From a bacterium (GTDB taxonomy: Bacteria; Patescibacteriota; Minisyncoccia; Phycocordibacterales; JAKAEA01), in contig JAKAEA010000001.1 in NCBI GenBank assembly GCA_021818465.1, positions 311,712 to 375,711 on the forward strand: a stretch of DNA of 64,000 bases. The letters run 5' to 3'. Of this stretch, positions 11,855 through 57,064 are shown one piece after another (position 1 is the first letter of the stretch; each line of letters opens with the position of its first letter). The position numbers and the translations under genes were made by a program. The notes beneath the pieces are model-generated. The model did no database searches and was not told where the DNA came from. It worked only from the letters and a program-made list of their open reading frames with translations.

Positions 11855-12112
11855 ATGAAAAAAAATCCAGTATGTACTATCTTGTGGTCAGATGCGGCAT
11901 ATAGCTATGATACAGAACCCGACCCGACCACACCAACGCCGTGTCTTACAACAGGGTTTATATTTGAAACAAATGAACAATATACTTTCATTGCTACAAA
12001 TGTAAAATATGATAAAGATACTGGCATTCTTACTGCCGTGGATGGTTTGATTATTCCAGAAAAAGCAATTTTGGAATTTAAACGAATAGGTGATTATCAT
12101 CCACAAGAATAA
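11855..12112 (+). CDS. Small hypothetical protein, paralog 1 (85 aa)
   Basis: ORF with upstream A/T-rich leader; homologous to the next ORF (shared I.W.DA...GF..E....Y..I....TG...IP...I pattern). Confidence 0.5.
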   Translation: MKKNPVCTILWSDAAYSYDTEPDPTTPTPCLTTGFIFETNEQYTFIATNVKYDKDTGILTAVDGLIIPEKAILEFKRIGDYHPQE

Positions 12113-12119
12113 TAATTAC

Positions 12120-12368
12120 ATGTCTGCAAAAAAAATCAGAGTTATTTGGAACGACGCGAGACTTTTTTCTCCTCAACAAAAAACCATCAGTCTGTCTTCT
12201 ATGGAAACACTCGGCTTTCTTGAAAAAGAAACTGATACATATCTTTTGATCAAAGATCCCATAACCACAGGACGGGATACTGGAGGCAAACATCCCAAAC
12301 AAAAACCAACGTTTTACTATATTCCCAAAGGAATGATTCAATCAATTGAATATATCACTATTCAATAA
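12120..12368 (+). CDS. Small hypothetical protein, paralog 2 (~82 aa)
   Basis: ORF 12090..12368, likely start MSAKKIRVIWNDA at 12120; tandem paralog of 11855..12112. Confidence 0.5.
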   Translation: MSAKKIRVIWNDARLFSPQQKTISLSSMETLGFLEKETDTYLLIKDPITTGRDTGGKHPKQKPTFYYIPKGMIQSIEYITIQ

Positions 12369-12495
12369 TTCCGTTCTAATCTCGTCCCAGACGGCCCGCC
12401 AACTCGTGAGGCGCACGAAAGGCGTCTCATGCTAATTTTTAGTTTTGCATAAACTGGTTTTATGATCACTCTTGGGCGCGTTGCGATACTATCTG
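12362..12495. repeat. Repeated intergenic element copy 1 (~135 nt; core GCCAACTCGTGAGGCGCACGAAAGGCGT at 12398-12425)
   Basis: Near-identical to 15058-15195 (shared AATAATT..GTTCTAAT..., core 28-mer, and downstream GCGATACTAT block). Confidence 0.75.
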
Positions 12496-12581
12496 TGATA
12501 TGAATCCCAAAAAACTGCGGACAGAGGAGAGTGGCCGGAACTGTATTTCTTCATTCTTTACAACTCCCAAAATAAGAGGTA

Positions 12582-13334
12582 GTGTTTGTGATAAGTTTGT
12601 TAGTTAATCTGTTTCTAAATATGTACTGTAAACATTGTGGTGAAAAAATGACTAACGGTGCCCAATTTTGCGGTAAATGTGGCGTGCTGGTAGATAATAA
12701 AGGTCCACAAAATCAGGAGATGTATAAAGAAAGTTCTTTAGACGTTGAGTTAAAAAGAGGCGTATATAAACTTGAAAATGGAGATATGGCGGGAGCAGAA
12801 AAAATCTTTGAAGATTTAGCTTTCAAATATAATGCGCCGATGGCGTGGGTATATATCGGAGGAATTAAATTAGGGCAATTAGATTCTGGAGAAAGCACGG
12901 TGCAACAGGCGCTTAACTGTTTTGTAAAAGCTAGTCAAATAAATCCTACGTCAAAAGAGATGTATCAGAGTATTTTTTGCGATATAGCTACAAAACAAAT
13001 AGAGAAATTTTATAACCAGTATTTTTTAACAAAAAAACAAGCTGGCAAAGCCAGCAGGAGAGGTTGGGGAAGTTTAGCTCTTGGAGGATTGTCGCTTCTT
13101 TTCGCGAATCAAAGCCAGACACTGGGTAATAAGATGCTCGGAGGGGCGGGCGGTATTTATGGCGCTTATCGTGCAAACAAAAATTTCTCAAATAGTAGTA
13201 ATGCAAAACAATTATTGTCATTCTATATCACGACCATAAAACAACTTGTCGCAGGCGTAGGATCTTTTTGTTCTGATAGTAAAAATATTTATCAGGATTT
13301 TTTGAATAAAACAAACCGACTTAAATTAGCATAG
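12582..13334 (+). CDS. Zinc-ribbon domain protein A (N-terminal CxxC-x10-CxxC)
   Basis: GTG start with AAGAGG RBS (or ATG at 12621); MYCKHCGEKMTNGAQFCGKCG zinc ribbon; Gly-rich hydrophobic segment near C-terminus. Confidence 0.55.
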   Translation: MFVISLLVNLFLNMYCKHCGEKMTNGAQFCGKCGVLVDNKGPQNQEMYKESSLDVELKRGVYKLENGDMAGAEKIFEDLAFKYNAPMAWVYIGGIKLGQLDSGESTVQQALNCFVKASQINPTSKEMYQSIFCDIATKQIEKFYNQYFLTKKQAGKASRRGWGSLALGGLSLLFANQSQTLGNKMLGGAGGIYGAYRANKNFSNSSNAKQLLSFYITTIKQLVAGVGSFCSDSKNIYQDFLNKTNRLKLA

Positions 13335-13355
13335 TCTATTAATTAACATATTTTT

Positions 13356-14450
13356 ATGTACTGTTCAAAATGTGGAAATAAAGCAGAACATGGCGACCGC
13401 TTTTGTATTAAATGTGGAACAAAACTTAACTTCACAGTAGAGGAAAATGTAGAAACGCTTAGTCAGGAAAAAATAGAAGAAATTATCAAAGATCTCAACG
13501 ATGGAACAGTAGCCGCATTCACAGCCGCCGAACTCACAGTTGCCGAAAAAGAGGCGGTAGTCAGAATAGCAATCAAACAACAAGACCCTCGACTGGCTAT
13601 AAGTATTCTTAATTATCTGAATAGTGTGAAAGAACACAAACTAACCTCGCAAGAAAAAATGGAATTAAAATGGACTATCCTAAAAAGCAAGGATACGGAA
13701 ATTGCGTGTTCTGCCTTGCTTAATCTTGGAAATGTTTTTACAGACCCAGAACGAAAAACCCTACGCGATATTGCATCAAAAACTACAAACGCTTATTGGG
13801 CGTATGGTATCTATCGAGAAGAATGTCTTGAGCTGGTACACGAACCAGAGAACAGAAAAGCGCTAAGAAAAACGGTTGTAGAAACGAACGATCCCAAATA
13901 CGCTTTTGAATTTCTTAGTGCTCAAGACGAAAACCTGGAATCATACGATAAGGATCTGAAGTCCTTGGAGTTTAGTAAAGAAGAATTAGAACATTTTAAA
14001 CAAATAATACTTTCTAGCCGAGATGTTGATATTGCATACAAGCTCTTGTTTTCCAAAGAACAAGTAGAAAAGGCAAAAAAAGATCCAGATATGTTTGATT
14101 ACACCTTTCCTTCAGTGATTGATTTAACACCTAACGAACAAGAAATCCTCAAGAAAATAATTCTTGAGAGTAAGAACGCTTATTCTGCCTACGACATACT
14201 TGGGGGGCTTCGTGGAAATCCGGCCGTTATTTTCACGGATATAGAACGAGCGCTTTTAAGAGAAATTTTAGTTCAAACAACGAATCCAACTGTTGCCCGT
14301 GGTGTCTTGTCTAATCCTATTCTGTCCCAGAGTCTCAGTCAGGAGGAGCGCGCTCATCTTGTTGGCGCTCAAAATGAAGACAGTAAGAAAAGAGAAGAAA
14401 TAAAGAAAAAATGGAGAGAATCAAATAAGACCCCGAGGGAAATTGAATGA
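13356..14450 (+). CDS. Zinc-ribbon domain protein B with internal helical repeats
   Basis: MYCSKCGNKAEHGDRFCIKCG zinc ribbon, paralogous N-terminus to previous gene; repeated ..NAY(W/S)AY(G/D)I.. helical motifs. Confidence 0.55.
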   Translation: MYCSKCGNKAEHGDRFCIKCGTKLNFTVEENVETLSQEKIEEIIKDLNDGTVAAFTAAELTVAEKEAVVRIAIKQQDPRLAISILNYLNSVKEHKLTSQEKMELKWTILKSKDTEIACSALLNLGNVFTDPERKTLRDIASKTTNAYWAYGIYREECLELVHEPENRKALRKTVVETNDPKYAFEFLSAQDENLESYDKDLKSLEFSKEELEHFKQIILSSRDVDIAYKLLFSKEQVEKAKKDPDMFDYTFPSVIDLTPNEQEILKKIILESKNAYSAYDILGGLRGNPAVIFTDIERALLREILVQTTNPTVARGVLSNPILSQSLSQEERAHLVGAQNEDSKKREEIKKKWRESNKTPREIE

Positions 14451-14462
14451 TAGGCGTTAAAA

Positions 14463-15020
14463 ATGTTAAAGAAAGATGATTGCCAAAAACTGAATAATGA
14501 ATTTGTATTTTTTCAGAATATTCTTATGGATATTTTGATCCGTCGCGCTATCTTCAAAAAATTTGAGGATGAGATGAAGAAGACTCACCTCACCGAACAC
14601 AACGATATGATGGCATTGGTTTGGTATGGTTATACAATTTCTCAATTAAGTGATTGTCGAAAATTCTTTGCCCGTGACGACGATGCTCATAGTTTTCAGT
14701 TTGTTGTTTGCCATATTAAAAATGAGGTTCTTAAAAAAGAACATAAAACCCTTTTTATTTTTTGGAAAGAAGAAGACCTAGAGACCGTTCTTAACAAGTA
14801 TCTACTTCATGCTAATATGCGTTTTCGTGATATCAAAACCGAAGTTCATGTTCGTGTTCTTGATTTATTTATTGACAAACTTGAAAAATATATTGAGTCA
14901 ATAAAAGATGATTTATTAAAAAATTATTCAGGAATCAGTGTAGTAGGATATGGAAATTTTTTGTTAGAACGAGAGCGTGAGGTTGATGTATTTTTTAAAG
15001 AAGTTAGAAAAAATCAATAA
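14463..15020 (+). CDS. Hypothetical protein (185 aa)
   Basis: Intact ORF with AT-rich composition, no recognisable motif. Confidence 0.4.
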   Translation: MLKKDDCQKLNNEFVFFQNILMDILIRRAIFKKFEDEMKKTHLTEHNDMMALVWYGYTISQLSDCRKFFARDDDAHSFQFVVCHIKNEVLKKEHKTLFIFWKEEDLETVLNKYLLHANMRFRDIKTEVHVRVLDLFIDKLEKYIESIKDDLLKNYSGISVVGYGNFLLEREREVDVFFKEVRKNQ

Positions 15021-15057
15021 AATTTTCCGTTATTATTCTTGGTTTTATATGTTATAA

Positions 15058-15195
15058 TTCAATAATTGAGTTCTAATACTATTCTAAACTTTCCGCCAAC
15101 TCGTGAGGCGCACGAAAGGCGTTTAATAACGCTTTTATATTTTTATAGACTGGTACGTAAATTTTTTTGAGTATGTCGCGATACTATTCTTGTCT
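15058..15195. repeat. Repeated intergenic element copy 2 (core at 15095-15122)
   Basis: See copy 1; begins right after stop of 14463..15020. Confidence 0.75.
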
Positions 15196-15505
15196 TGATT
15201 TTAAACTCAAACTATCGTTGACTTGTGAGAGTGTTTTGACTAACGTTCACGACAAATAAAAAACCCACTGCATTGTGCACATGCAGTGGGGGAGGAGAAA
15301 GTTTGATGGATCGATACATCAAAAATCTTTCTCGTGCTGATTTGATGAGACGAAACGAGTAATATCGAGACATCGATCTGCATAATCTCTCCGAAGAAGA
15401 CTAACTTCATTCGATTACACTTCTCGTCACAAACCCCTCAGCATTAATATTATAGCATATATGTAAAAAAAGTCAAATCATTGAACACTTGATGAAAATG
15501 AAACG

Positions 15506-15532
15506 GCCTGCCAACTCGTGCGGCGCACGAAT
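15506..15532. repeat. Partial third copy of repeat core (GCCTGCCAACTCGTGCGGCGCACGAA)
   Basis: 23/26 identity to core of copies 1 and 2; ~90 nt upstream of 15622 gene. Confidence 0.6.
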
Positions 15533-15621
15533 GAAAAAAGTTTATTGTTTCGTGATATATACAAATTTTTGTGTTATAAGTAACGCCAAGTATTGTCATT
15601 ACTTTTATAAGCTAAACTACT

Positions 15622-15969
15622 ATGACTAAAAAAATCGTATTTCTAGGTGTTTTTTTGGTGTTACTGATGAGTGTTGTGGCCGTACCAGCGGGTCAGGCTT
15701 TTGCTTGGGGATCATATGGTTATTATGGCGGCTACCAATATTATAATAGTTACCAGCCTTACTACAGCTATTACTATCAACCGTCGTATTATTACTATAC
15801 ACCGCCCGTATATACGCCACCGCCGACGTATACCTATTATTGCTCGTGGGGATGTGCGTCACACAACTATAACTACAATAACGACTATAATTATAATTAC
15901 AACTACAATCATAACTACAACCACAACTATAATCACAACTATAATTACAACAACTACCGTCAGTGGTAG
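15622..15969 (+). CDS. Secreted Tyr/Asn-rich low-complexity protein (signal peptide + YY/NYNYN repeats)
   Basis: N-terminal MTKKIVFLGVFLVLLMSVVAVPAGQAFA signal peptide; Tyr/Pro-rich then (NYNYNH)n; paralogous N-terminus to 22139..23149. Confidence 0.6.
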   Translation: MTKKIVFLGVFLVLLMSVVAVPAGQAFAWGSYGYYGGYQYYNSYQPYYSYYYQPSYYYYTPPVYTPPPTYTYYCSWGCASHNYNYNNDYNYNYNYNHNYNHNYNHNYNYNNYRQW

Positions 15970-15991
15970 ATGGTGGTTTTTTTCCAGCTCC

Positions 15992-16714
15992 TTATTTTTT
16001 TGAAACGTTTTTTATCGTAGCAAAACTTTTTTCAAGTGCTGTTTGCATGCTGCTTAAATCGGAAAAGGCAGGATACACGCTGCCATTCACAATAAAAAAT
16101 GGTGGTGTAGTGGTGGCAGGAATTGGCGGTAGAGCGATAAGACTTTCTACTGCTGCCCAGTCACTGTCGTAATTAAATGAATAAATATGTGCCTGAGGAT
16201 ACTTTTGTGTTACTGCTTGTAAAATATATCCTTGGGTCACACACTGCGCGCAGGTGCCTGTTGGGTAAAAATAGAGGATAAATGGACGCGATGTGGTAAC
16301 TGGAAGAGCGCAGCGGTGTATAATAGTTTGTTCAAGATTATAGTCTTTAATTTCCATGAGCGAATAGTAGCGTTCCAAACGGAAGAGATCGGGATTATCT
16401 GGTCCGAGCTGACTTTGCATAAAAGAAAGTTTATTTTGTAAATCAGTGAGACTCGTGGCAATGGCTTTCGCAGTGGTTGTAGCTGAAGCGCCAGTGCTCG
16501 TACTGGAAGCGCAGAGAGATGTGTTGATGTTAGCAGTAAGGATGTCGGTTCGCGCTTGGAGTGATAAAATTTGAGTAGCGATGGCATCTTCTTCATTTTT
16601 AATAATGGCAGTTTTTTGATTATTGATATAGACACTAACCATCCACGCACCGATAAAGATGACGGCCGTAATAACAAGAACTGAAATATATAGCGTAACG
16701 GGAATTCGTTTCAT
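15992..16714 (-). CDS. Membrane-anchored thioredoxin-like protein (CxxC)
   Basis: N-terminal TM helix, coiled-coil segment, C-terminal Trx-like region with YPTGTCAQC motif. Confidence 0.4.
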   Translation of the reverse strand: MKRIPVTLYISVLVITAVIFIGAWMVSVYINNQKTAIIKNEEDAIATQILSLQARTDILTANINTSLCASSTSTGASATTTAKAIATSLTDLQNKLSFMQSQLGPDNPDLFRLERYYSLMEIKDYNLEQTIIHRCALPVTTSRPFILYFYPTGTCAQCVTQGYILQAVTQKYPQAHIYSFNYDSDWAAVESLIALPPIPATTTPPFFIVNGSVYPAFSDLSSMQTALEKSFATIKNVSKK

Positions 16715-18069
16715 GAGCGAGCGGTGGGCGTTCGGGTACGGGCGGTGACGTGAACAGCTCGTTCACGTTGCCAGCTTGGCGTGCGTGAACGGAGCGCATT
16801 ATAGACTGACACGAGTAGCCAAAGCGGCGCGATAAGAGGAAAAATTAAAAAATACAACAGAACAGAAACGGAAAAACGCGAACGCTCACGGGCGAGAGCG
16901 TGCGCCTCGACAACCATGCCAATCATAAGAATATAAATTAAAAGCGTGAGTACAAGGTATGCTGGGGTGCTAATAAAAAACCAATTCCAGTGCCATGGTG
17001 AGAAGGAAAAACCGATAGTGTGGAAGCGTAGATACCAGTGCCAAAGTGTCACACCGAAACGATATATAAGAAACGCTATGGAAATCACGGCACCAAAAAT
17101 AAGAGCAAGGCCAAGTGGTGCGGTAAAGAGAGCCATATTGCCATAGCGTGGTCGCAATAGAATCCAATGATAGTCGCGCAGATTTAAAAGAAAGCCAGAT
17201 GTCCAGCGAACGCGTTGTGCGTAGAGTTTTTTGAAAGTAGCGGGACCAGTTGTGTACACGGTTGCCTCGTGAGCGTTTTCAATATGTAAATTTTTTGATT
17301 GAATACGAAAAGCCATTTCCATATCTTCGGTATTGTGGGCGTGTCGAAAAAAACCAACGTGGCTAAATAAATCTCGCCGAAAAAGAGAGAATGGTCCAGG
17401 AGTGACATAGATAGCACTAATAAGTGCTTGGACCTTTCTAATAAAAATACCAATAAGGTATTCAACACGTTGCAGAGCCTGGGCGAGTGTTTGTGGTCGA
17501 TAAATTTTCATCGCGGGAGTGACGGCGACAGTCATATGCTGGCGAGTGCCGATCGGTGTTTTCCAATCCTCAAAATAAGGAATCATTTTTTTCAATGCAT
17601 TTGCTTCAACAAACGAGTCGGCGTCTAAACAGCCGACAATATCGGTGGTAGCGTGGGCAATAGCGAAATTGAGCGCGGTATATTTGCCACCATTTTCTTT
17701 TCGGTGGGCGGTGACGATAGTGGGATACTGTTTTTGGTAACGTTGAATAACGTTCCAGGTATTGTCTTGCGAACCATCATCAACGGCACTGATATATAAT
17801 TTACCGACGGGATATTCAAGGGCAAGTAATGATTCAATTGTTTTTCCAACAGTTTTTTCTTCGTTATAACACGGAACAATAATGGTAACAGATGGGTATT
17901 CGTGGGTGTGTTCAAGGCTATCGTGAATTTTGGTGCGTGCGCGAATTTTTCGACGATTAATAAAATATGTACCCAAAATAAAGGTTTGAAAATAGATGCC
18001 TACAAAGAGGAAAATGTAGAGAACAACGGTTTGAATAGTGTTCATAAGAAGAGAAATGTAGTATAGCAA
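16711..18069 (-). CDS. Family 2 glycosyltransferase, processive membrane type (CesA/NodC-like)
   Basis: IIVPCYNEE, VDDGSQD, DAD, QRVRWTSG (QxxRW) motifs and multiple C-terminal TM helices. Confidence 0.8.
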   Translation of the reverse strand: MLYYISLLMNTIQTVVLYIFLFVGIYFQTFILGTYFINRRKIRARTKIHDSLEHTHEYPSVTIIVPCYNEEKTVGKTIESLLALEYPVGKLYISAVDDGSQDNTWNVIQRYQKQYPTIVTAHRKENGGKYTALNFAIAHATTDIVGCLDADSFVEANALKKMIPYFEDWKTPIGTRQHMTVAVTPAMKIYRPQTLAQALQRVEYLIGIFIRKVQALISAIYVTPGPFSLFRRDLFSHVGFFRHAHNTEDMEMAFRIQSKNLHIENAHEATVYTTGPATFKKLYAQRVRWTSGFLLNLRDYHWILLRPRYGNMALFTAPLGLALIFGAVISIAFLIYRFGVTLWHWYLRFHTIGFSFSPWHWNWFFISTPAYLVLTLLIYILMIGMVVEAHALARERSRFSVSVLLYFLIFPLIAPLWLLVSVYNALRSRTPSWQRERAVHVTARTRTPTARS

Positions 18070-18092
18070 AATAAGGATTTTTGAGCTATAAT
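18064..18092 (+). promoter_or_regulatory. Sigma70-like promoter (TAGCAA-17-TATAAT) with near-leaderless start
   Basis: TATAAT at 18087-18092, 9 nt before ATG 18102. Confidence 0.4.
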
Positions 18093-18101
18093 CGCCCTAT
18101 T

Positions 18102-19241
18102 ATGAAAAAAATCGTCATTCATGACCCACAGGAAGAGACGCGCATTAAAGCATTACAAGAAAGAACTGACGTCAAAGCTGAACGAATAAAACGCTTACTC
18201 AATCTTCCCGATTTAACTAAAAAAGAACATTCACCGGTAAAGATTTTGTTTGATCAGATCATTGCTTTGCCACGATTCAAGGATTTTGATGTGGTTGATT
18301 TTCCACGAATTGTGACCGTGGAGCAAAACTTCGATCTTCTCAATACACCGAAGGATCACCCGAGTAGGCGAGAGACTGACACCTATTATGTTGATGATAC
18401 GCATGTGTTACGGACGCAAGCGACGGTGATGTGGTCGTTCTATCTCAAAGACGAAGCGGTTTTGAAAAAATTGGAAACCGATGGCGAGGTAGGTGCACTT
18501 TCAAGAGGAATTGTGTTTCGAAAAGACGAGATTGATCGTAATCATTATCCGGCATTTCATCAGATAGATGGCTTGTATGTTTGCAAAAAATCAAAAAAAG
18601 TTATAACCCTAAAGGATTTAGAAGATGTGCAAATAGATTTGGCCAAAAGTATTTTTGGTGAGGATATACACTATCAATTTTTGACAGACACGTTTCCTTT
18701 TACTGATCCATCAGTTGAAATGGACATTCAATTTAATGGTACTTGGTTGGAAGTTAATGGTGCTGGTTTGGTGCATCCGCAAGTCCTGAAAAATTTCGGA
18801 TTGGACCCAGAGGTATACAATGGCTGGGCTTTTGGTTTCGGCGACCGCTTGGCAATGATTAAAATGGGCATTCCTGATATTAGGATTTTGTGGTCAGATG
18901 ATCCGCGTATCACCAGTCAATTTAAAGATATCAACAGCACATTTAAAGAAGTTAGTAAGTATCCTGCAATCGTTCGCGATATTTCTTTCATTATTGATGC
19001 CAATATTAGTTTAAATAATTACTACGAGATTGTGCGAGATATTGGTAAGGATGTGTTGGAGGAGGTACAACTCATTGATACATTTGAGAATGAGAAAAAA
19101 TTTGGTGCAGGTAAAATTTCCTACACGTTTAGAATTGTGTATCGTTCGCTGGAGCGGACGTTAACAAACAGTGAAGTAAACGATCTACACGAAGAAATTA
19201 GACAAAGAACAGAGAAGGAATTCAAGGCAATTTTGCGCTAA
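18102..19241 (+). CDS. pheS: Phenylalanine--tRNA ligase alpha-like catalytic subunit fused to C-terminal FDX-ACB domain (single-chain PheRS-like)
   Basis: Class II motifs incl. FPFTDPSVEMD and GAGLVHPQVL...GWAFGFGDRLAMIKMGIPDIR; extra ~90 aa C-terminal domain YPAIVRDISFII...YTFRIVYRSLERTLT matching the ferredoxin-fold anticodon-binding domain. Confidence 0.75.
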   Translation: MKKIVIHDPQEETRIKALQERTDVKAERIKRLLNLPDLTKKEHSPVKILFDQIIALPRFKDFDVVDFPRIVTVEQNFDLLNTPKDHPSRRETDTYYVDDTHVLRTQATVMWSFYLKDEAVLKKLETDGEVGALSRGIVFRKDEIDRNHYPAFHQIDGLYVCKKSKKVITLKDLEDVQIDLAKSIFGEDIHYQFLTDTFPFTDPSVEMDIQFNGTWLEVNGAGLVHPQVLKNFGLDPEVYNGWAFGFGDRLAMIKMGIPDIRILWSDDPRITSQFKDINSTFKEVSKYPAIVRDISFIIDANISLNNYYEIVRDIGKDVLEEVQLIDTFENEKKFGAGKISYTFRIVYRSLERTLTNSEVNDLHEEIRQRTEKEFKAILR

Positions 19242-19333: not shown

Positions 19334-21409
19334 ATGGCTGAAACAAAGGGTAAAAATACGTCTCACTATAGCGCCGCAGATATCCAGGTGTTAGAAGGTT
19401 TGGAGCCGGTGCGTAAACGTCCCGGTATGTACATTGGTACGACTGGTCCAGATGGTTTTCATCACTTGGTTACAGAAGTTTTTGACAACTCACGCGATGA
19501 AGCGATGGGTGGTTTTGCTACTGATATTGAAATTACGCTTTTGCCAGCGGTGGATGGCGATTTAGAACGAGTGCGTGTGGTTGATAATGGTCGTGGTATT
19601 CCCGTAGATGTACACAAACAAACAAAAGTGTCAGCGTTGGAAACTATTATGACCACCTTGCATGCTGGTGGAAAATTTGGCGGCGAGGGATATAAGGTTT
19701 CAGGCGGCTTACACGGCGTTGGTGCTTCGGTGGTGAATGCGCTCTCCAGTTGGTGTCAGGTGGAGGTGCATCGTGACGGTGGTAGATATGTTCAAGAATA
19801 CCAACGTGGCAAGAAAAAAGCCGCGGTTAAAAAATTGGGCGCATCACAACGTACCGGTACCATCGTCACTTTTGCTCCCGATGAAGAAATTTTTGGTAAG
19901 CAAACATTCGATTTCAATCGTTTGGTAAATCACATGCGCCAACAAGCGTATCTTGTTAAGGGGTTGCGTATTAGCGTTATTGATGCTCGCGCAGCGAAAA
20001 AATGCGATCTCGATACGGTATTTTATTTTCGTGAATGCGGTGTTGATGCGCCATCGCACTCGTTTTATTTTGAAGGCGGCCTGCGGTCGTTGGTTAAGTT
20101 TCAAAACCAAGTGCTTAAGCCGGTGCACAAGAATATTTTTTATGTAGAGAAAAAGACTAACGAATACGAATCAGCCGAAATTGCTTTACAGTATGTGGAT
20201 GATATTGCTTCACGAGTGTTACCATTCGCAAACAATATTTATAACAGCGAGGGCGGTACGCATATCACTGGTTTTAAAACGGCACTGACACGTACGCTCA
20301 ATAATTATGGACGCAAAAACAATCTCATTAAAGAATCGGAAGATAATTTTACTGGCGAAGACGTACTTGAAGGTTTGACCGCGGTGGTTTCCGTGAAGAT
20401 TCGCGAAATTCAATTTGAAGGTCAAACGAAAGCGAAATTAGGTACCGTGGAAGCGCGCGGTATTGTGGAAAGTGTTTTCGGTGAGGCCTTCGAGGCATTT
20501 TTGGAAGAAAATCCTGATGATGCGCGCGCTATTGTTGGTAAGGTGGTGCTTGCGCTTAAAGCACGTAAAGCTGCTAAAGCTGCCAAAGATTCCGTATTGC
20601 GCAAGGGTGCCTTAGAAGGATTTGCATTGCCTGGTAAGTTGGCTGATTGTCAAAGCAAAGACGCCAGTGAGTCCGAACTCTTTATCGTAGAGGGTGACTC
20701 TGCCGGTGGTACCGCCAAACAAGGCCGTGATCGCCGTACGCAGGCAGTGTTGCCGTTACGGGGCAAAATCCTCAATGTTGAGCGTGCTCGCTTGGATAGA
20801 ATGCTTGATTCGGCAGAAATCAAAGCACTTATTATTGCTCTTGGTACAGCGATTGGTGACACGTTTGATCTTGCTCGGTTGCGTTATCATAAAGTTATTA
20901 TTGCTACGGATGCTGACGTTGATGGTGCGCACATCCGTACGCTTTTGCTGACACTCTTCTTTCGTCATTTCCGCTCACTTGTTGATAATGGTCATATTTA
21001 CATTGCGCAACCACCGCTTTTCAAAATCAAAAAAGGCAAGGAAATTTTTTATGCGTATTCCGATGAAGAACGCAACAAAATTGTTGGCACCGCAGACGTT
21101 AGTGATATTGAAGAACTAGAATCCGATGAAGCTGCTGCAGCCGATACGCCTGCTGTAGAAGAAAAAGAAGAAACAGTAACAAAAAAATCTAACAAAATAT
21201 CTATTCAGCGCTATAAAGGTTTGGGTGAAATGAATGCTGAAGAACTTAAAGAGACAACAATGGATATTGCCAACCGTATTCTCAAAAAGGTAACGGTAGA
21301 CGACGCACAAGATGCCGATAAAGTTTTTGACGTCCTTATGGGCACCGATGTGCCAGCGCGTAAATCTTTCATTCAATCTAATGCCCAAAAAGCAACACTG
21401 GATATTTAA
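19334..21409 (+). CDS. gyrB: DNA gyrase subunit B
   Basis: GHKL ATPase N-terminus (LEGLEPVRKRPGMYIGTTG, DNGRGIP), TOPRIM EGDSAGG, C-terminal QRYKGLGEMN motif. Confidence 0.85.
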   Translation: MAETKGKNTSHYSAADIQVLEGLEPVRKRPGMYIGTTGPDGFHHLVTEVFDNSRDEAMGGFATDIEITLLPAVDGDLERVRVVDNGRGIPVDVHKQTKVSALETIMTTLHAGGKFGGEGYKVSGGLHGVGASVVNALSSWCQVEVHRDGGRYVQEYQRGKKKAAVKKLGASQRTGTIVTFAPDEEIFGKQTFDFNRLVNHMRQQAYLVKGLRISVIDARAAKKCDLDTVFYFRECGVDAPSHSFYFEGGLRSLVKFQNQVLKPVHKNIFYVEKKTNEYESAEIALQYVDDIASRVLPFANNIYNSEGGTHITGFKTALTRTLNNYGRKNNLIKESEDNFTGEDVLEGLTAVVSVKIREIQFEGQTKAKLGTVEARGIVESVFGEAFEAFLEENPDDARAIVGKVVLALKARKAAKAAKDSVLRKGALEGFALPGKLADCQSKDASESELFIVEGDSAGGTAKQGRDRRTQAVLPLRGKILNVERARLDRMLDSAEIKALIIALGTAIGDTFDLARLRYHKVIIATDADVDGAHIRTLLLTLFFRHFRSLVDNGHIYIAQPPLFKIKKGKEIFYAYSDEERNKIVGTADVSDIEELESDEAAAADTPAVEEKEETVTKKSNKISIQRYKGLGEMNAEELKETTMDIANRILKKVTVDDAQDADKVFDVLMGTDVPARKSFIQSNAQKATLDI

Positions 21410-50046: not shown

Positions 50047-51650
<1,604 letters not shown>

Positions 51651-51654
<4 letters not shown>

Positions 51655-51992
51655 TCATGGCGGATTACTACGACACAATGCAAGTGTGCGTGCGATGGGG
51701 GCACAAGACGACGGAATACTATAACCGAAGCCCGCAGTGGGGTGCCGACTTCTGTCCGCAATGCGGAAGCGCGACTACCATCGTGTGTGGAAAATGTGGG
51801 GCTAACATACGTGGTCACCATCATTTTGATGGTTTTTTCTCTGCCGTAGACACTAAAGTGCCTCTCAACTGCCATGCCTGCGGCGTAGCGTATTCATGGA
51901 AGTTTCGACACGTCGTAAGAAACTTCTTCAAGGCGTTAGTCGCACCCGTGAAGTACCTGATAGACGCCCTGGTGAGCGTTTTCAAGAAATGA
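51651..51992 (+). CDS. Small Cys-rich zinc-ribbon protein embedded between hsdM and hsdS (113 aa)
   Basis: GTG/ATG start overlapping hsdM stop, stop overlapping hsdS ATG (ATGA); three CxxC pairs (CPQCG, CGKCG, CHACG). Confidence 0.55.
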
Positions 51993-53155
51993 GCATGGCA
52001 ACTACCGAATGGAAAGAAACAACACTTGGTGATGTCTGCCTTGTTGAGAGTGGCGGGACTCCTTCGACAGCGAATAATACATACTGGAGTGGCTCGGTCT
52101 CTTGGATAACGCCTCGAGACCTGGCGTCACATGAAGGCCGTTGGATTGAACAAGGCGAAAAGAACATTACGGAAGAAGGGTTGCGAAACTCTTCTGCGCG
52201 CTTGCTGCCGAAAAACACCGTACTTTTTTCTTCGCGTGCTCCCATCGGTTATGTAGCAATCGCTGCACGAGAACTGGCAACGAATCAGGGTTTAAAGAAT
52301 CTTGTATGTGATGAGAAAGAGACGCATTACAAGTTTATCTACTATTGGCTGAAGGCGAACGTGCATGCTATCGAGCGACGGGCGTCTGGCTCTACTTTTG
52401 CTGAAGCGTCCGCGACGGTAATGAAAACACAGGAGGTGTTGCTTCCGCCACTTGACGAGCAGCGCTCCATTGCAACAGTGCTCTCTAGCTTGGACGACAA
52501 AATCGAACTCCTACGACGGCAGAATGAGACACTAGAGCAGATTGCGCAGGCGATTTTCAACGAGTGGTTCGTGAAGCCGACGAGTAAGCGCGTACCGCTT
52601 CGCGAGTTGGTTGAGTTCAACCCAGCCACACCACTCAAAAAAGGAACCGTTGCGGCCTATTTTGACATGGGTGCGCTACCGACCGTGGGCAGTTGGCCCG
52701 AAGAACCCATACAAAGACCCTTCGGCTCGGGGGCGAAGTTCCAAAATGGAGACACTCTGCTTGCACGCATTACTCCTTGTCTCGAAAATGGCAAGACCGC
52801 ATTTGTGCAGCGTCTAAAAAATGGTGAGGTTGCGTGGGGTTCAACTGAATTCATCGTAATCCGCCCAAACTCACCGCTACCGCCTACGTTTGGGTATTTG
52901 CTCGCCAGGAATCCTTCGTTTCGAGATTTTACTATACGCGCAATGACTGGCACGTCTGGTAGGCAGCGCGTACAGGTAGATATGCTGCTCGAATATGAGG
53001 TCTCAATGCCGAGCGACGATGTGATATCGGAGTTCTCTCATGCGGTCGAGGTCATATTCTCAAAAATAAAGAACAATGCCGAGCAAGCCGACACACTGGC
53101 AGCTACGCGCGATGCGCTGTTGCCGCGGCTGATGAGTGGCGAAATACGAGTATAA
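51989..53155 (+). CDS. hsdS: Type I restriction-modification system specificity subunit
   Basis: Two target-recognition domains separated by conserved central repeat (LDEQRSIATVLSSLDDKIELL), C-terminal conserved helix (LPRLMSGEIRV). Confidence 0.85.
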   Translation: MSMATTEWKETTLGDVCLVESGGTPSTANNTYWSGSVSWITPRDLASHEGRWIEQGEKNITEEGLRNSSARLLPKNTVLFSSRAPIGYVAIAARELATNQGLKNLVCDEKETHYKFIYYWLKANVHAIERRASGSTFAEASATVMKTQEVLLPPLDEQRSIATVLSSLDDKIELLRRQNETLEQIAQAIFNEWFVKPTSKRVPLRELVEFNPATPLKKGTVAAYFDMGALPTVGSWPEEPIQRPFGSGAKFQNGDTLLARITPCLENGKTAFVQRLKNGEVAWGSTEFIVIRPNSPLPPTFGYLLARNPSFRDFTIRAMTGTSGRQRVQVDMLLEYEVSMPSDDVISEFSHAVEVIFSKIKNNAEQADTLAATRDALLPRLMSGEIRV

Positions 53156-53157
53156 AT

Positions 53158-53856
53158 ATGAGAATAATCAAACTTTACTTCAGAATATTTTGGATACCCG
53201 TCCTCCTCCTTGTGGCGGCGGTTGGGTGCTGGATTTTTGTTCCCAGTACAATAGATGTTTTTGATGCTGGAGTATTAGGTACAGCATTTGGTGTAGGCAT
53301 ATCAATTTTTGCTGCTGAAGGAATGAAGAAAGTGTCCGAACATAAACGCGTCAAGAGAACATTCGTCTTTTTGAAGCTGATCACTATTCCGTATCTAAAG
53401 AATCAGGCAGAAAATATATCTGCCACATTGAATAAATACCGCGATTTATGCTCCATAGAACAAACGGTAGATTTTCTTACATTGGGTGCACATTTTGATG
53501 CCATTGCGACAAATTTTGACAAAAGTTGGCTCCAGTTGGTGTACTCCCAGGATTTTGTTGATGCTATAGAGTCTGACGACCACTTCAATAAATTGGCGAA
53601 TGCAATTCTTGAGGTGCTTCTATTCATTAAACAGGCGACAGGGCAATCAATTAACGCGAAAACACTTCTTATGATGAACAATATCTCCAACCTCAATGAT
53701 ATTCAGAAACAAGAGATGATGACTCGTGCAAAAAAGATAAGAGACGATCTTTTAGATAATGTTCAAAAGTTGGAAAAATATATAGGTAAACTTGACGAAG
53801 AAATAATCGCATTTTTGATCAAGAATGGAGCTACGTATAGCGAATTTGAAAGATAA
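53158..53856 (+). CDS. Hypothetical 2-TM membrane protein embedded between hsdS and hsdR (AT-rich)
   Basis: Start 2 nt after hsdS stop, stop 1 nt before hsdR ATG; two N-terminal TM helices then helical soluble domain; ~35% GC within ~60% GC operon. Confidence 0.55.
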
Positions 53857-53857
53857 T

Positions 53858-56800
53858 ATGAACCGAATCTACGAAAGCGACATCGAGAAGTGGGCTATCG
53901 AGGCACTGGAACACCAGGGCTACACGTACCTCGCACCCGAGACGCAGGAGGCCGAGCGCGGTGACCTGCACGACGTCGTGCTCGCGGGGCGGTTGCGCGA
54001 GGCCGTGGCACGACTCAACCCTAGAGTGCCCGAAGACGCGCGCGAGGACGCGGTCAAAAAAGTGCTCGCGCTTTCGTCATCGCCGCACTTGATAGAGGCA
54101 AACGAGGAGTTCCAGCGGATGCTCACTGATGGCGTGAGCGTGTCTTCCTACGCTGATGGCGAACAACGTGGCGAGGTCGTCCGCGTCATCGACTTCGCAG
54201 ATCCGCGCAATAACGACCTCGTGGTGGCCAACCAGTTCTCGGTACTCCACGACAACACTAGCAAGCGCCCCGACGTGGTACTCATCGTCAACGGCCTGCC
54301 TCTCGTCGTCATCGAGCTAAAGAACCCGACGGATGAGAACGCGACCGTGCACAAGGCGTACCAGCAGCTCGACAACTACAAGCGAGCCATTCCGCAGCTG
54401 TTCGCCTACAACAGCGTCCTGGTGGCCTCTGACGGCATAGACGCGAAGGCAGGGGCGCTCACGAGCCCGTGGGAGCGCTTCGCTATCTGGCGTGCGCCCG
54501 AGGGTAAGCGCGAGAAGGAAAAGACGACGCCGCAGATGCAGGTGCTCGTCGAGGAGATGCTCCAGCCCGAGGTGCTGCTCGACGTGGTGCGCAGCTTTAC
54601 GGTCTTTGAGAAGACGCGCCGCGAGGATGCGAAAACAGGTCAGACCATCGTGGAAACCATCAAGAAAATCGCGCAGTATCACCAATACTACGTGGTCAAT
54701 AAAGCGGTCGCTTCGACGACTAAGGCCACCGCAGAACATGGCGAGCGCAAAATCGGCGTCGTATGGCATACGCAGGGTTCGGGCAAGTCGCTCTCGATGG
54801 TGTTCTACACGGGCAAGGTCGTGCTCGCGCTCGATAACCCGACGGTGGTGGTGCTCACTGACCGCAACGACCTCGACGACCAGCTCTTCGAGACGTTTGC
54901 TGGTGCTCGCGACCTCTTGCGCCAGGAGCCCGTGCAGGCCGAAAGCCGCGAACACCTGAAGAAGCTTTTGCAGACGGCTGGTGGCGGCATCATCTTCACC
55001 ACCATTCAGAAGTTCTTCCCCGAGGACGGCGGGAGCACGTATGACGAGCTGTCCGACCGCAAGAACATCGTCGTCGTTGCGGACGAGGCGCACCGCAGCC
55101 AGTACGGCTTCGCGGCGCGAACGGTCTTCAAGAACGACGAGGCCATCACGCGCTACGGCAGCGCCAAGTACCTGCGCGACGCACTCCCGAACGCCTCGTT
55201 CATCGGCTTCACGGGTACGCCTATCGAGAAGGAGGACAAGTCCACGCTCGCTGTTTTCGGCGAGTATCTCGACGTGTACGACATCCAGCGTGCGGTCGAA
55301 GACAAAGCAACCGTTCCCATCTACTACGAGAGCCGTTTGGTGAAGGTGCACCTGCCCGACGACAAGAAAGCGGAGATGGACGAAGACGTGGAGGCGGTGG
55401 CCGAGGGCATCGAGTTTTCAGCAAAGGAGAAAGCCAAAGCGAAGTGGGCGCAGCTCGAAGCCATCGTCGGTAATCGCGAGCGAATCAAAGAGGTCGCTCG
55501 CGACCTGGTGGAGCACTTTGAGACGCGGCAAGAGGTCTTCACGGGCAAAGCGATGGTCGTGGCGATGAGCCGTCGTATCGCGGTGGAGCTGTACGAGGAG
55601 ATTGTCGCGCTCCGTCCCGAGTGGCACAGCACCGATTTGGATAAGGGCAAAATCAAGGTGGTGATGTCGGCGAGTTCGAGCGACCCGAAAGAGTTCCAGC
55701 AGCACCACACGAACAAGCCCGACCGCCGCAAGCTCGCGGAGCGTTTCAAAGACCCTACCAACCCGCTCCAGCTCGTCATCGTGCGTGACATGTGGCTCAC
55801 GGGCTTCGACGTGCCGTGCCTGCACACGATGTACGTGGACAAGCTCATGGAGGGCCACAATCTCATGCAAGCCATCGCTCGCGTCAATCGCGTCTATAAA
55901 GACAAGCCAGGCGGTCTCATCGTGGACTACATCGGCTTTGCCTCCGACTTGCAGAAAGCGCTCGCCGTCTACACCGAGAGCGGCGGCAAGGGCGACCCGA
56001 CCATCACGCAGAAGAAAGCCATCGAGGTGATGCAGGAGAAGTACGAGGTGGTGAAGCAGATGTTCCATGGCTTCGACTACCAGCGCTACTTCGCCGCCGA
56101 CACGCACGCGAAGCTCGGCATTATCCTCGAGGCGCAGGAGCACATTCTCGCGCAAGACCAAGACGACGAAGGCGCGTCAGGCAAGGAAAAGAAGAAAACC
56201 AGCGCCAAAGAGCGGTTCGTGCGGGAGGTTATGGCGCTGTCGCAGTCGTTTGCGCTTGCGGTGCCGAGCGAGGCGGCGATGGAGATACGCGACGAGGTTG
56301 CGTTCTTCCAGGCAATCAAGGCACGGCTTGTGAAGTTTGAGCCCGAGGGCGCACCTGGCACCGAGAACATCGGTACCGCTATTCGCCAAATCGTCGATCA
56401 GGCACTCGTGGCCGAGGGTGTCGTGGACATCTTTGCTGCGGCAGGCGTGCAGAAGCCCGACCTCTCCGTTCTCTCGGACGAGTTCCTCGCCGAGGTGCAA
56501 GGCATGAAGCATCGCAACCTGGCGATGGAGTTGCTGCGCAAGATTTTGAACGACGAGATAAAGCTACGCCTGCGCCGCAACGCGCTCCAGGGCAAGAAGC
56601 TCTCGGAGATGCTCGATAAGACCATCAAGAAGTATCAAAACAACCTGCTCACGGCCTCCGAGGTCATCCAAGAGCTCATCGAGCTGGCAAAGCAGATACG
56701 GCAGGAAGACGCCCGCGGCACGCAACTCGGCCTCTCTGACGACGAGGTGGCCTTCTACGATGCGCTGGCCGAAAACGAGAGCGCCCGCGAGGTGCTGGGC

Positions 56801-57064
56801 GATGAACAGCTGCGCGACCTCGCCCGTGTCCTCGTCGACAAGGTGCGCAAGAACACCTCGATTGACTGGACTATCCGTGAGAACGTACAAGCCCGCCTGC
56901 GCGTCTTGGTGAAGCGCACGCTCAACCAGTACGGCTATCCGCCCGATAAGCAGGCCATCGCCACCGAGACCGTGCTGAAGCAGGCTGAACTATTCGCCGA
57001 CGAGTGGGATGATTCTAGTTTGGATACTGTACAAAAAATTACTTCAGAGACTTTAAAGAAATAA
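53858..57064 (+). CDS. hsdR: Type I restriction enzyme R subunit
   Basis: N-terminal nuclease/HsdR_N region, SF2 helicase motifs (GSGKS Walker A, DEAHRSQ), 1068 aa. Confidence 0.9.

Follow-up and report, generated by a model that had tools for sequence, protein, structure and literature searches.

We analysed a 64,000-nucleotide stretch of a Patescibacteriota genome (assembly GCA_021818465.1, contig JAKAEA010000001.1, positions 311,712 to 375,711), hereafter the window, which carries a gene for a single-chain protein resembling phenylalanyl-tRNA synthetase (PheRS). The gene lies between a divergent glycosyltransferase gene and gyrB (Table 1). Gene calling on a 539,823-bp contig of GCA_027341405.1, a metagenome-assembled genome (MAG) of the Paceibacteria type within the candidate phyla radiation (CPR), yields an identical protein. 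An in-frame TTG seven codons upstream of the ATG could in principle provide a longer form, and one gene call in Logan (P0538) takes it. However, the homologues of the protein start with MK.IVI.DP, which matches the ATG and not the TTG. Hence, the extent given for the gene in the preliminary description of this DNA is right.

The protein comprises a class II catalytic core of the PheS type followed by an FDX-ACB anticodon-binding domain, the type that forms the B8 domain of PheT. The scores of the two Pfam profiles are far above their curated cut-offs, which excludes a chance resemblance. The preliminary description had proposed precisely this fusion on one chain, and the two peptides it quoted for the second domain (YPAIVRDISFII... 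and YTFRIVYRSLERTLT) fall within the FDX-ACB match, which covers the whole profile. A C-terminal domain other than FDX-ACB was among the findings named there as counting against the proposal, and the profile match shows the opposite. In tblastn searches, the core is 38.6% identical to E. coli PheS (E 2e-45) and the C-terminal domain matches residues 698-794 of E. coli PheT (E 1e-5). Only the last ~105 positions (693-798) of the bacterial PheT profile TIGR00472 (pheT_bact) match the protein. No match to the N-terminal coiled coil PF02912 was found with Pfam, and a short helical hairpin stands in its place. The catalytic core then opens with the motif 'LPDLT' (residues 35-39), which in our alignment is common to other bacterial fused-type proteins and to SrmL, a bacterial family that we discuss below.

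Table 1. Features of the fused gene, of its product and of the surrounding or related loci (positions in the window unless a locus is named; aa, amino acid residues of the fused protein; ORF, open reading frame)
Feature	Position	Strand	Evidence or remark
Complete coding sequence, single-chain PheRS-like protein, 379 codons + stop	18102..19241	+	ORF list, ATG start
In-frame TTG extension of 7 codons (would give 386 aa), probably unused	18081..18101	+	120 homologues start at the ATG equivalent
Short N-terminal helical hairpin, aa 1-37, where canonical PheS has a long coiled coil	18102..18212	+	AlphaFold2 helices 9-20 and 24-33
Class II PheS-type catalytic core, aa 38-274	18213..18923	+	PF01409 tRNA-synt_2d, E 1.7e-54, 185 bits
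Motif 2 region GIVFRKDEIDRNHYPAFHQIDG, aa 136-157	18507..18572	+	R140, H148, Q154 in 120/120 homologues
Phe-ring pocket FPFTDPSVE, aa 198-206	18693..18719	+	F198-P199-F/Y200 in 120/120 homologues
Motif 3 GWAFGFG-DRLAMI, aa 241-253, including A243 and R249	18822..18860	+	One-residue deletion
FDX-ACB (PheT B8-type) anticodon-binding domain, aa 285-379	18954..19238	+	PF03147, E 4.5e-26, 91.6 bits, profile 1-94/94
Predicted G34-reading D326, F328, S340	19077..19121	+	Aligned to human mitochondrial PheRS D364, F366, S375
Predicted fourth G34 contact, C-terminal R379	19236-19238	+	Corresponds to human R414 by inference (alignment ends before R414)
gyrB, conserved downstream neighbour, not part of the enzyme	19334..21409	+	Pfam domains on called gene
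Divergent family-2 glycosyltransferase, upstream	16711..18069	-	ORF list, gene call
Low-GC region	12000-16000		GC 0.35-0.37
T/I-rich low-complexity ORF, probably spurious	15671-16003		
Type I restriction-modification stretch	50047-57064		GC 0.57-0.60
hsdM	50047-51654		
hsdS	51896-53155		
hsdR	53825-57064		
Stand-alone PheT B1-B2 genes of related loci	L063:9561-9989, L046:9493-9990, L024, L032, L034, L037, L039, L057, L067	Same as fused gene	

The closest structures to this protein, by sequence and by predicted fold, are mitochondrial PheRS. The best sequence matches in the PDB are human mitochondrial PheRS chains, which align over the full length and both domains (E ~2e-61). An AlphaFold2 model built on an alignment of 150 homologues reached a predicted local distance difference test score (pLDDT) of 97.4 and a predicted template modelling score (pTM) of 0.92. 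The top Foldseek matches of this model are 3CMQ and 5MGH, the closed form of the human mitochondrial enzyme (E ~3e-36, TM score 0.78-0.79, root mean square deviation ~3 A), whereas bacterial PheS chains cover only its core. The profiles, the PDB matches and the fold thus bear out the mitochondrial monomeric architecture suggested for the gene beforehand. Mitochondrial PheRS (human FARS2, 3CMQ/3TUP; yeast MSF1) is the same two-module chain of PheS core and B8/FDX-ACB, is ~32-40% identical to the window protein, matches it in the residues of the Phe pocket, of catalysis and of G34 reading (Asp, aromatic, Ser, Arg), and like it lacks both the coiled coil and the editing domain. The two nevertheless differ in several respects. 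The window protein is encoded on a bacterial chromosome beside gyrB, has no targeting peptide and lacks an insertion found in the opisthokont enzymes. It has a distinct N-terminal hairpin followed by 'LPDLT' and a deletion of one residue in motif 3, and some of its relatives are paired with a separate gene for the B1-B2 domains of PheT.

To describe the functional sites, we tabulated them across the 120 best database homologues, which are 72-100% identical to the window protein and all have the two domains. The three invariant residues of motif 2 are identical in the E. coli and human enzymes. The F198-P199-F/Y200 stretch, where SrmL has H-P-Y, holds the two aromatic residues between which the Phe ring is sandwiched, and A243, at the floor of the pocket, corresponds to A294 of E. 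coli PheS. Taken together, F198-P-F200, A243, F244, R140, Q154, E206 and R249 are the residues of the human and E. coli enzymes and are kept in 115-120 of the 120 homologues. The shortened motif 3, which reads GFG[DE]R with the usual hydrophobic residue gone, occurs in 119 of the 120 close homologues and is absent from the more distant fused proteins P0121 and P0122, and from the human and E. coli enzymes.

The anticodon-binding domain is equally conserved at the positions predicted to contact G34: D326, F/Y328 and S340 are present in all 120 homologues and R379 in 119. Human mitochondrial PheRS reads G34 of the anticodon through D364, F366, S375 and R414, and the D364G substitution abolishes its activity (PMC7540514). 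A related genome encodes an ordinary tRNAPhe with a GAA anticodon, a G1-C72 pair and A73, which are the determinants used by monomeric PheRS (PMC4394434). There is no tRNAPhe gene in the 64-kb window, and among the related loci only one has it near the fused gene (L064:6642-6715).

The gene is widespread. A scan of GTDB, with one genome per species, found at least 557 species-representative stretches encoding a relative of the window protein, and our analyses of loci use the best 80 of these. Their proteins are 69-86% identical to that of the window and come from Staskawicz-, Nealson-, Taylor-, Ryan- and Moranbacteria and from Paceibacterota MAGs, including a closed chromosome of 876,331 bp (OY969557.1). 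The named sources among the 120 database homologues are Paceibacterota, Staskawiczbacteria and 'Patescibacteria group'; NCBI annotates these proteins as 'hypothetical protein' and JGI as 'PheRS alpha chain'. A few contigs with genes of the Paceibacteria type, 72-78% identical (L011, L032, L040 and L045), are titled 'uncultured Candidatus Saccharibacteria', 'Bdellovibrionales', 'Gammaproteobacteria' or 'Nanoarchaeota archaeon', and were probably mislabelled by automation or mis-binned. In 45 of the 80 loci gyrB is directly downstream of the fused gene. The median identity to the proteins of the window across these loci is 72% for the fused PheRS, 68% for GyrB, 59% for ProRS and 58% for DnaE. 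The fused gene is under strong purifying selection of housekeeping grade, and is at least as conserved as GyrB. Directly upstream of it, many related genomes have a tRNA-Thr(TGT) or a tRNA-Met/Met/Asp cluster (L022:9886-9959, L023:9870-9943, L044:9886-9957, L056:9907-9981, L035:9517-9793 and others).

We then searched for a canonical PheRS. Queries with PheS and PheT of E. coli and of a CPR bacterium against the 64-kb window (tblastn) matched only the fused ORF, and Pfam found no PheT among the ten largest other ORFs, in agreement with the earlier statement that the window lacks pheT. Neither a PheT of the B3_4/B5 type nor a second PheS turned up in the window or among the 1.23 Mb of sequence that flanks the fused gene at the 80 related loci. 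Likewise, rplT and infC are missing from both the window and these loci. The fused gene is outside the thrS-infC-rpmI-rplT-pheS-pheT arrangement seen in the CPR bacterium of locus L006. This CPR-like bacterium has a canonical thrS-sua5-infC-rpmI-rplT-pheS-pheT operon (L006:3921-6910). When its PheT was used as a query, the named sources among the 120 best matches were Woyke-, Collier-, Gottesman- and Magasanikbacteria and 'Patescibacteria group'. These CPR lineages with a canonical pheS-pheT (Woyke-, Collier-, Gottesman- and Magasanikbacteria) are named differently from those with the fused gene. No long contig was common to these matches and to those of the fused gene, a weak indication given that both samples are small.

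The protein is very probably a functional PheRS of the mitochondrial type. The alpha-type class II core would activate Phe and transfer it to tRNAPhe, and the fused FDX-ACB domain would read G34 of the anticodon, much as the monomer of mitochondria does. Since a B3/B4 domain is missing from the chain, it would not edit Tyr-tRNAPhe in cis. We consider it likely that this editing-less single chain, presumably a monomer, serves as the housekeeping PheRS in a lineage of CPR bacteria of the Paceibacteria type, where it would have taken the place of the (alpha-beta)2 enzyme. Somewhat less firmly, we also expect it to be the only PheRS of the lineage.

Several observations weigh against this reading. 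The deletion of one residue in motif 3 is unusual for a class II enzyme. The protein scores 256.0 bits on TIGR00469 (pheS_mito), 2.3 bits short of the cut-off of 258.35, and 171.3 bits on TIGR00468 (pheS), where the cut-off is 237.45. It aligns end to end with the SrmL profile NF051887 at 251.1 bits (cut-off 300), and therefore sits between the NCBIfam families and passes no curated cut-off; the related bacterial protein P0121 passes TIGR00469 at 264 bits. The search for canonical genes covered 64 kb of a contig of ~540 kb, and a canonical or archaeal-type PheRS may lie elsewhere. With a single, randomly placed pheT per genome, chance alone would put only ~1.5-2 of them into the flanks that we searched, and these flanks are syntenic and non-independent. 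The SrmL family shows that a scaffold of PheS and FDX-ACB can be re-purposed. Finally, the fused-type genes of an Oligoflexia MAG and of another non-CPR bacterium (L090:10001-11245 and L091:10001-11197; 47-53% identity) have accessory-looking neighbourhoods, with a beta-lactamase, a two-component system and a glycosidase, and may be paralogues.

The motif 3 deletion and the scores marginally below the equivalog cut-offs would fit a PheRS derivative that binds tRNA but has lost catalysis or acts as a regulator. Yet the class II catalytic residues, including the arginines of motifs 2 and 3, do not vary among the 120 sequences, nor does the Phe pocket, and the AlphaFold2 model is very confident through motif 3. 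We regard this explanation as very improbable.

The other points bear on whether the fused gene is an accessory paralogue, with a canonical (alpha-beta)2 PheRS encoded elsewhere and a side role for the single chain, such as that of a stress or antibiotic-insensitive PheRS, or of a ligase for another substrate like SrmL. SrmL, which NCBIfam recognises as a bacterial 'mystery ligase' of PheS plus FDX-ACB, is indeed close in layout and shares the 'DLT' motif at the N-terminus. However, the true SrmL proteins P0238 and P0259 score 402 and 419 bits on NF051887 and are 34-35% identical to the window protein. They reach 93-99 bits on the pheS profile, versus 171 bits for the window protein, and show the replacements H86N/S, F198H, S204G, G220E and F244L/S, along with changes of F to T/I and of S to N in the anticodon-binding domain. 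None of these is present in the window protein, which keeps the PheRS residues at every site remodelled in SrmL and falls short of the family cut-off, so we rejected its identity as an SrmL. The gene of P0259 (L005:2097-3215) is surrounded by M9-like and M23 peptidases, an IstB-like gene and unannotated genes, with no translation genes nearby, and the pocket of its product (H-P-Y, Gly at the position of S204 and Glu at that of G220) suggests a substrate other than Phe.

A paralogue with a side role would gain from the restriction of our pheS/pheT search to the window and related flanks, and from the fused genes found among accessory genes outside the CPR, one of which encodes a protein with a decayed FDX-ACB. 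Against this, the whole clade of the window protein keeps the pocket and the G34 contacts that are altered in SrmL, and the protein is as conserved as GyrB across dozens of species and syntenic with gyrB. A redundant aminoacyl-tRNA synthetase would moreover be unusual in genomes of ~0.5-0.9 Mb, and the 120 nearest relatives of the stand-alone B1-B2 proteins described below do not include a full-length PheT. We therefore consider an accessory role unlikely, and retain a housekeeping PheRS as the better explanation.

To study the origin of the fusion, we built neighbour-joining trees of the PheS cores and, apart from them, of the FDX-ACB domains. The fused set included the Paceibacteria proteins, the other bacterial forms P0121-P0123, the pair P0126 and P0127 from CPR bacteria with genetic code 25, SrmL and the eukaryotic mitochondrial-type proteins, and was compared with only five canonical PheS sequences. 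The cores of all fused proteins group together against the nearest canonical PheS with a bootstrap of 99, and their FDX-ACB domains group against the sampled B8 domains of PheT with a bootstrap of 78. This suggests that a single fusion event, as far as such trees can tell, gave rise to all fused PheRS proteins. The deep branches have bootstraps of only 9-42, so that the bacterial clade may be the sister of the mitochondrial one, its ancestor or its descendant. Given these values and the five canonical PheS sequences, any transfer between bacteria and eukaryotes may have gone in either direction.

Several of the more distant fused proteins have features of their own. The 456-aa protein P0127 (L009:8001-9371) is encoded with many in-frame TGA codons where the homologues have Gly (e.g. 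in GWAFGxG), which indicates genetic code 25, as in CPR bacteria of the Gracilibacteria/Absconditabacteria type. The single-chain form thus extends beyond Paceibacteria. A 348-aa protein on a metagenome scaffold of 340,874 bp (L008:8001-9047) scores 308 bits on TIGR00469 and lacks a presequence. Its neighbours include an SNF2 helicase, PhageMetallopep, PcfJ and many ORFs without assigned function, and the scaffold resembles the genome of a giant virus or of a very large phage. A whole clade of proteins of 340-380 aa starting with 'MSNIP..K.G.NLH' may likewise be of viral or phage type. In P0123, one of the fused-type proteins mentioned above from outside the CPR, no recognisable FDX-ACB is left.

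Since the closest characterised relatives are eukaryotic mitochondrial enzymes, and the deep nodes that relate the bacterial fused clade to the mitochondrial one have bootstraps below 50, one could think of a recent transfer of a nuclear gene for mitochondrial PheRS from a eukaryote, or of a binning or assembly contaminant. Yet the gene lies within a bacterial contig of 540 kb, between a glycosyltransferase and gyrB, and its product lacks a targeting peptide. The clade of the gene has a bootstrap of 100%, at least 557 GTDB species representatives, conserved synteny and a synapomorphy of its own in the motif 3 deletion, and a sister form is found in CPR bacteria that read in-frame TGA as Gly. 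We rejected eukaryotic contamination on account of the genomic context and the wide bacterial distribution, and a recent transfer or contaminant is in our opinion scarcely credible.

In 9 of the 80 loci, a gene of 130-165 codons is found on the same strand 0-184 bp upstream of the fused gene, preceded in L063 by tyrS. Its product matches residues 1-153 of E. coli PheT, i.e. the B1-B2 domains, with 38-46% identity (E 1e-13 to 1e-29) and has a PF01588 (tRNA_bind) domain. The 120 closest relatives of this protein have 108-207 aa and only PF01588, with no full-length PheT among them. The family has at least 120 clusters, each of short proteins, which go by 'PheRS beta chain' at JGI and by 'EMAP domain' or 'hypothetical' at NCBI. 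The window itself has no such gene: tblastn with the N-terminal region of E. coli PheT gave no match, and the divergent glycosyltransferase leaves no room for it at this locus. The PheT of L006 has 660 aa and lacks B1-B2, i.e. it is the complement of the stand-alone B1-B2 genes of the Moranbacteria-like genomes. We also considered whether the F200Y/P203E variant of the pocket (FPYT.ES) tracks the upstream B1-B2 gene, and rejected this because the variant is common without B1-B2.

The presence of the upstream B1-B2 gene, the shortness of all its relatives and the lack of B3_4/B5 PheT in the loci searched make these genomes look like carriers of a dismantled pheT, in which B8 would have been fused to the alpha subunit and B3-B7, with editing and the pseudo-catalytic module, lost, while some lineages would retain B1-B2 on a gene of its own. 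In a broader scenario, which we find as easy to doubt as to accept, Paceibacteria, an entire class rich in species, and apparently the CPR bacteria with code 25 abandoned the supposedly universal (alpha-beta)2 enzyme for an editing-less single-chain PheRS that shares its fusion event with the mitochondrial one. The architecture would then be a bacterial invention, pre-dating or independent of organelles, or would have been exchanged, and the dismantling of PheT would still be visible as the B1-B2 gene.

Past gyrB are genes for a sortase, proS, dnaE and rnhB, and the ten largest other ORFs include infB, clpB, smc, RNase R, topA, a class-V aminotransferase, an MgsA-type AAA+ ATPase and a type I restriction-modification system. 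The latter has a markedly higher GC content than the window (~0.45), and is probably a horizontally acquired island. The low-GC region at 12000-16000 has several ORFs without a Pfam match and one weak match to a zinc ribbon.

Reviews describe three forms of PheRS, of which the heterotetramer is conserved in all known prokaryotes, while the monomeric form is mitochondrial and 'the only known example' of a monomeric class II core (PMC3275996, PMC4394434). In a search of the full-text literature, neither a bacterial single-chain PheRS nor SrmL was the subject of any paper found, although such a paper may exist. In mechanism the protein follows the enzyme already known from mitochondria, and the novelty lies in its host, its probable role in housekeeping, the features specific to the clade and the split B1-B2 partner. 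Compared with the canonical (alpha-beta)2 enzyme, whose PheS is homologous to the core of the window protein, whose last PheT domain is homologous to its C-terminus and whose substrates are presumably the same, the window protein has both pieces on one chain, without the coiled coil of PF02912. It also lacks the B1-B7 domains of PheT and hence the B3/B4 editing site. The PheRS of Mycoplasma is editing-deficient, and would likewise leave a bacterium with a reduced genome to translate without proofreading by PheRS. There, the (alpha-beta)2 form persists and its editing site is mutated, whereas the window protein lacks the whole editing domain.

If these interpretations are true, they would explain gaps in current annotations, where NCBI leaves the fused protein as 'hypothetical' and JGI names the B1-B2 protein 'PheRS beta chain'. 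The profiles of pheS and pheT serve as single-copy markers in estimates of genome completeness and in phylogenomics. They would miss the fused gene, which is below the pheS cut-off and, within the sequence examined, lacks a pheT partner. The protein would also provide a compact and probably orthogonal-friendly PheRS scaffold. If a large radiation of bacteria does use the single-chain form, the rule that all prokaryotes have a heterotetrameric PheRS would be broken, the origin of the mitochondrial enzyme would acquire a bacterial context, and the Phe codons of these bacteria would be translated without proofreading by PheRS.

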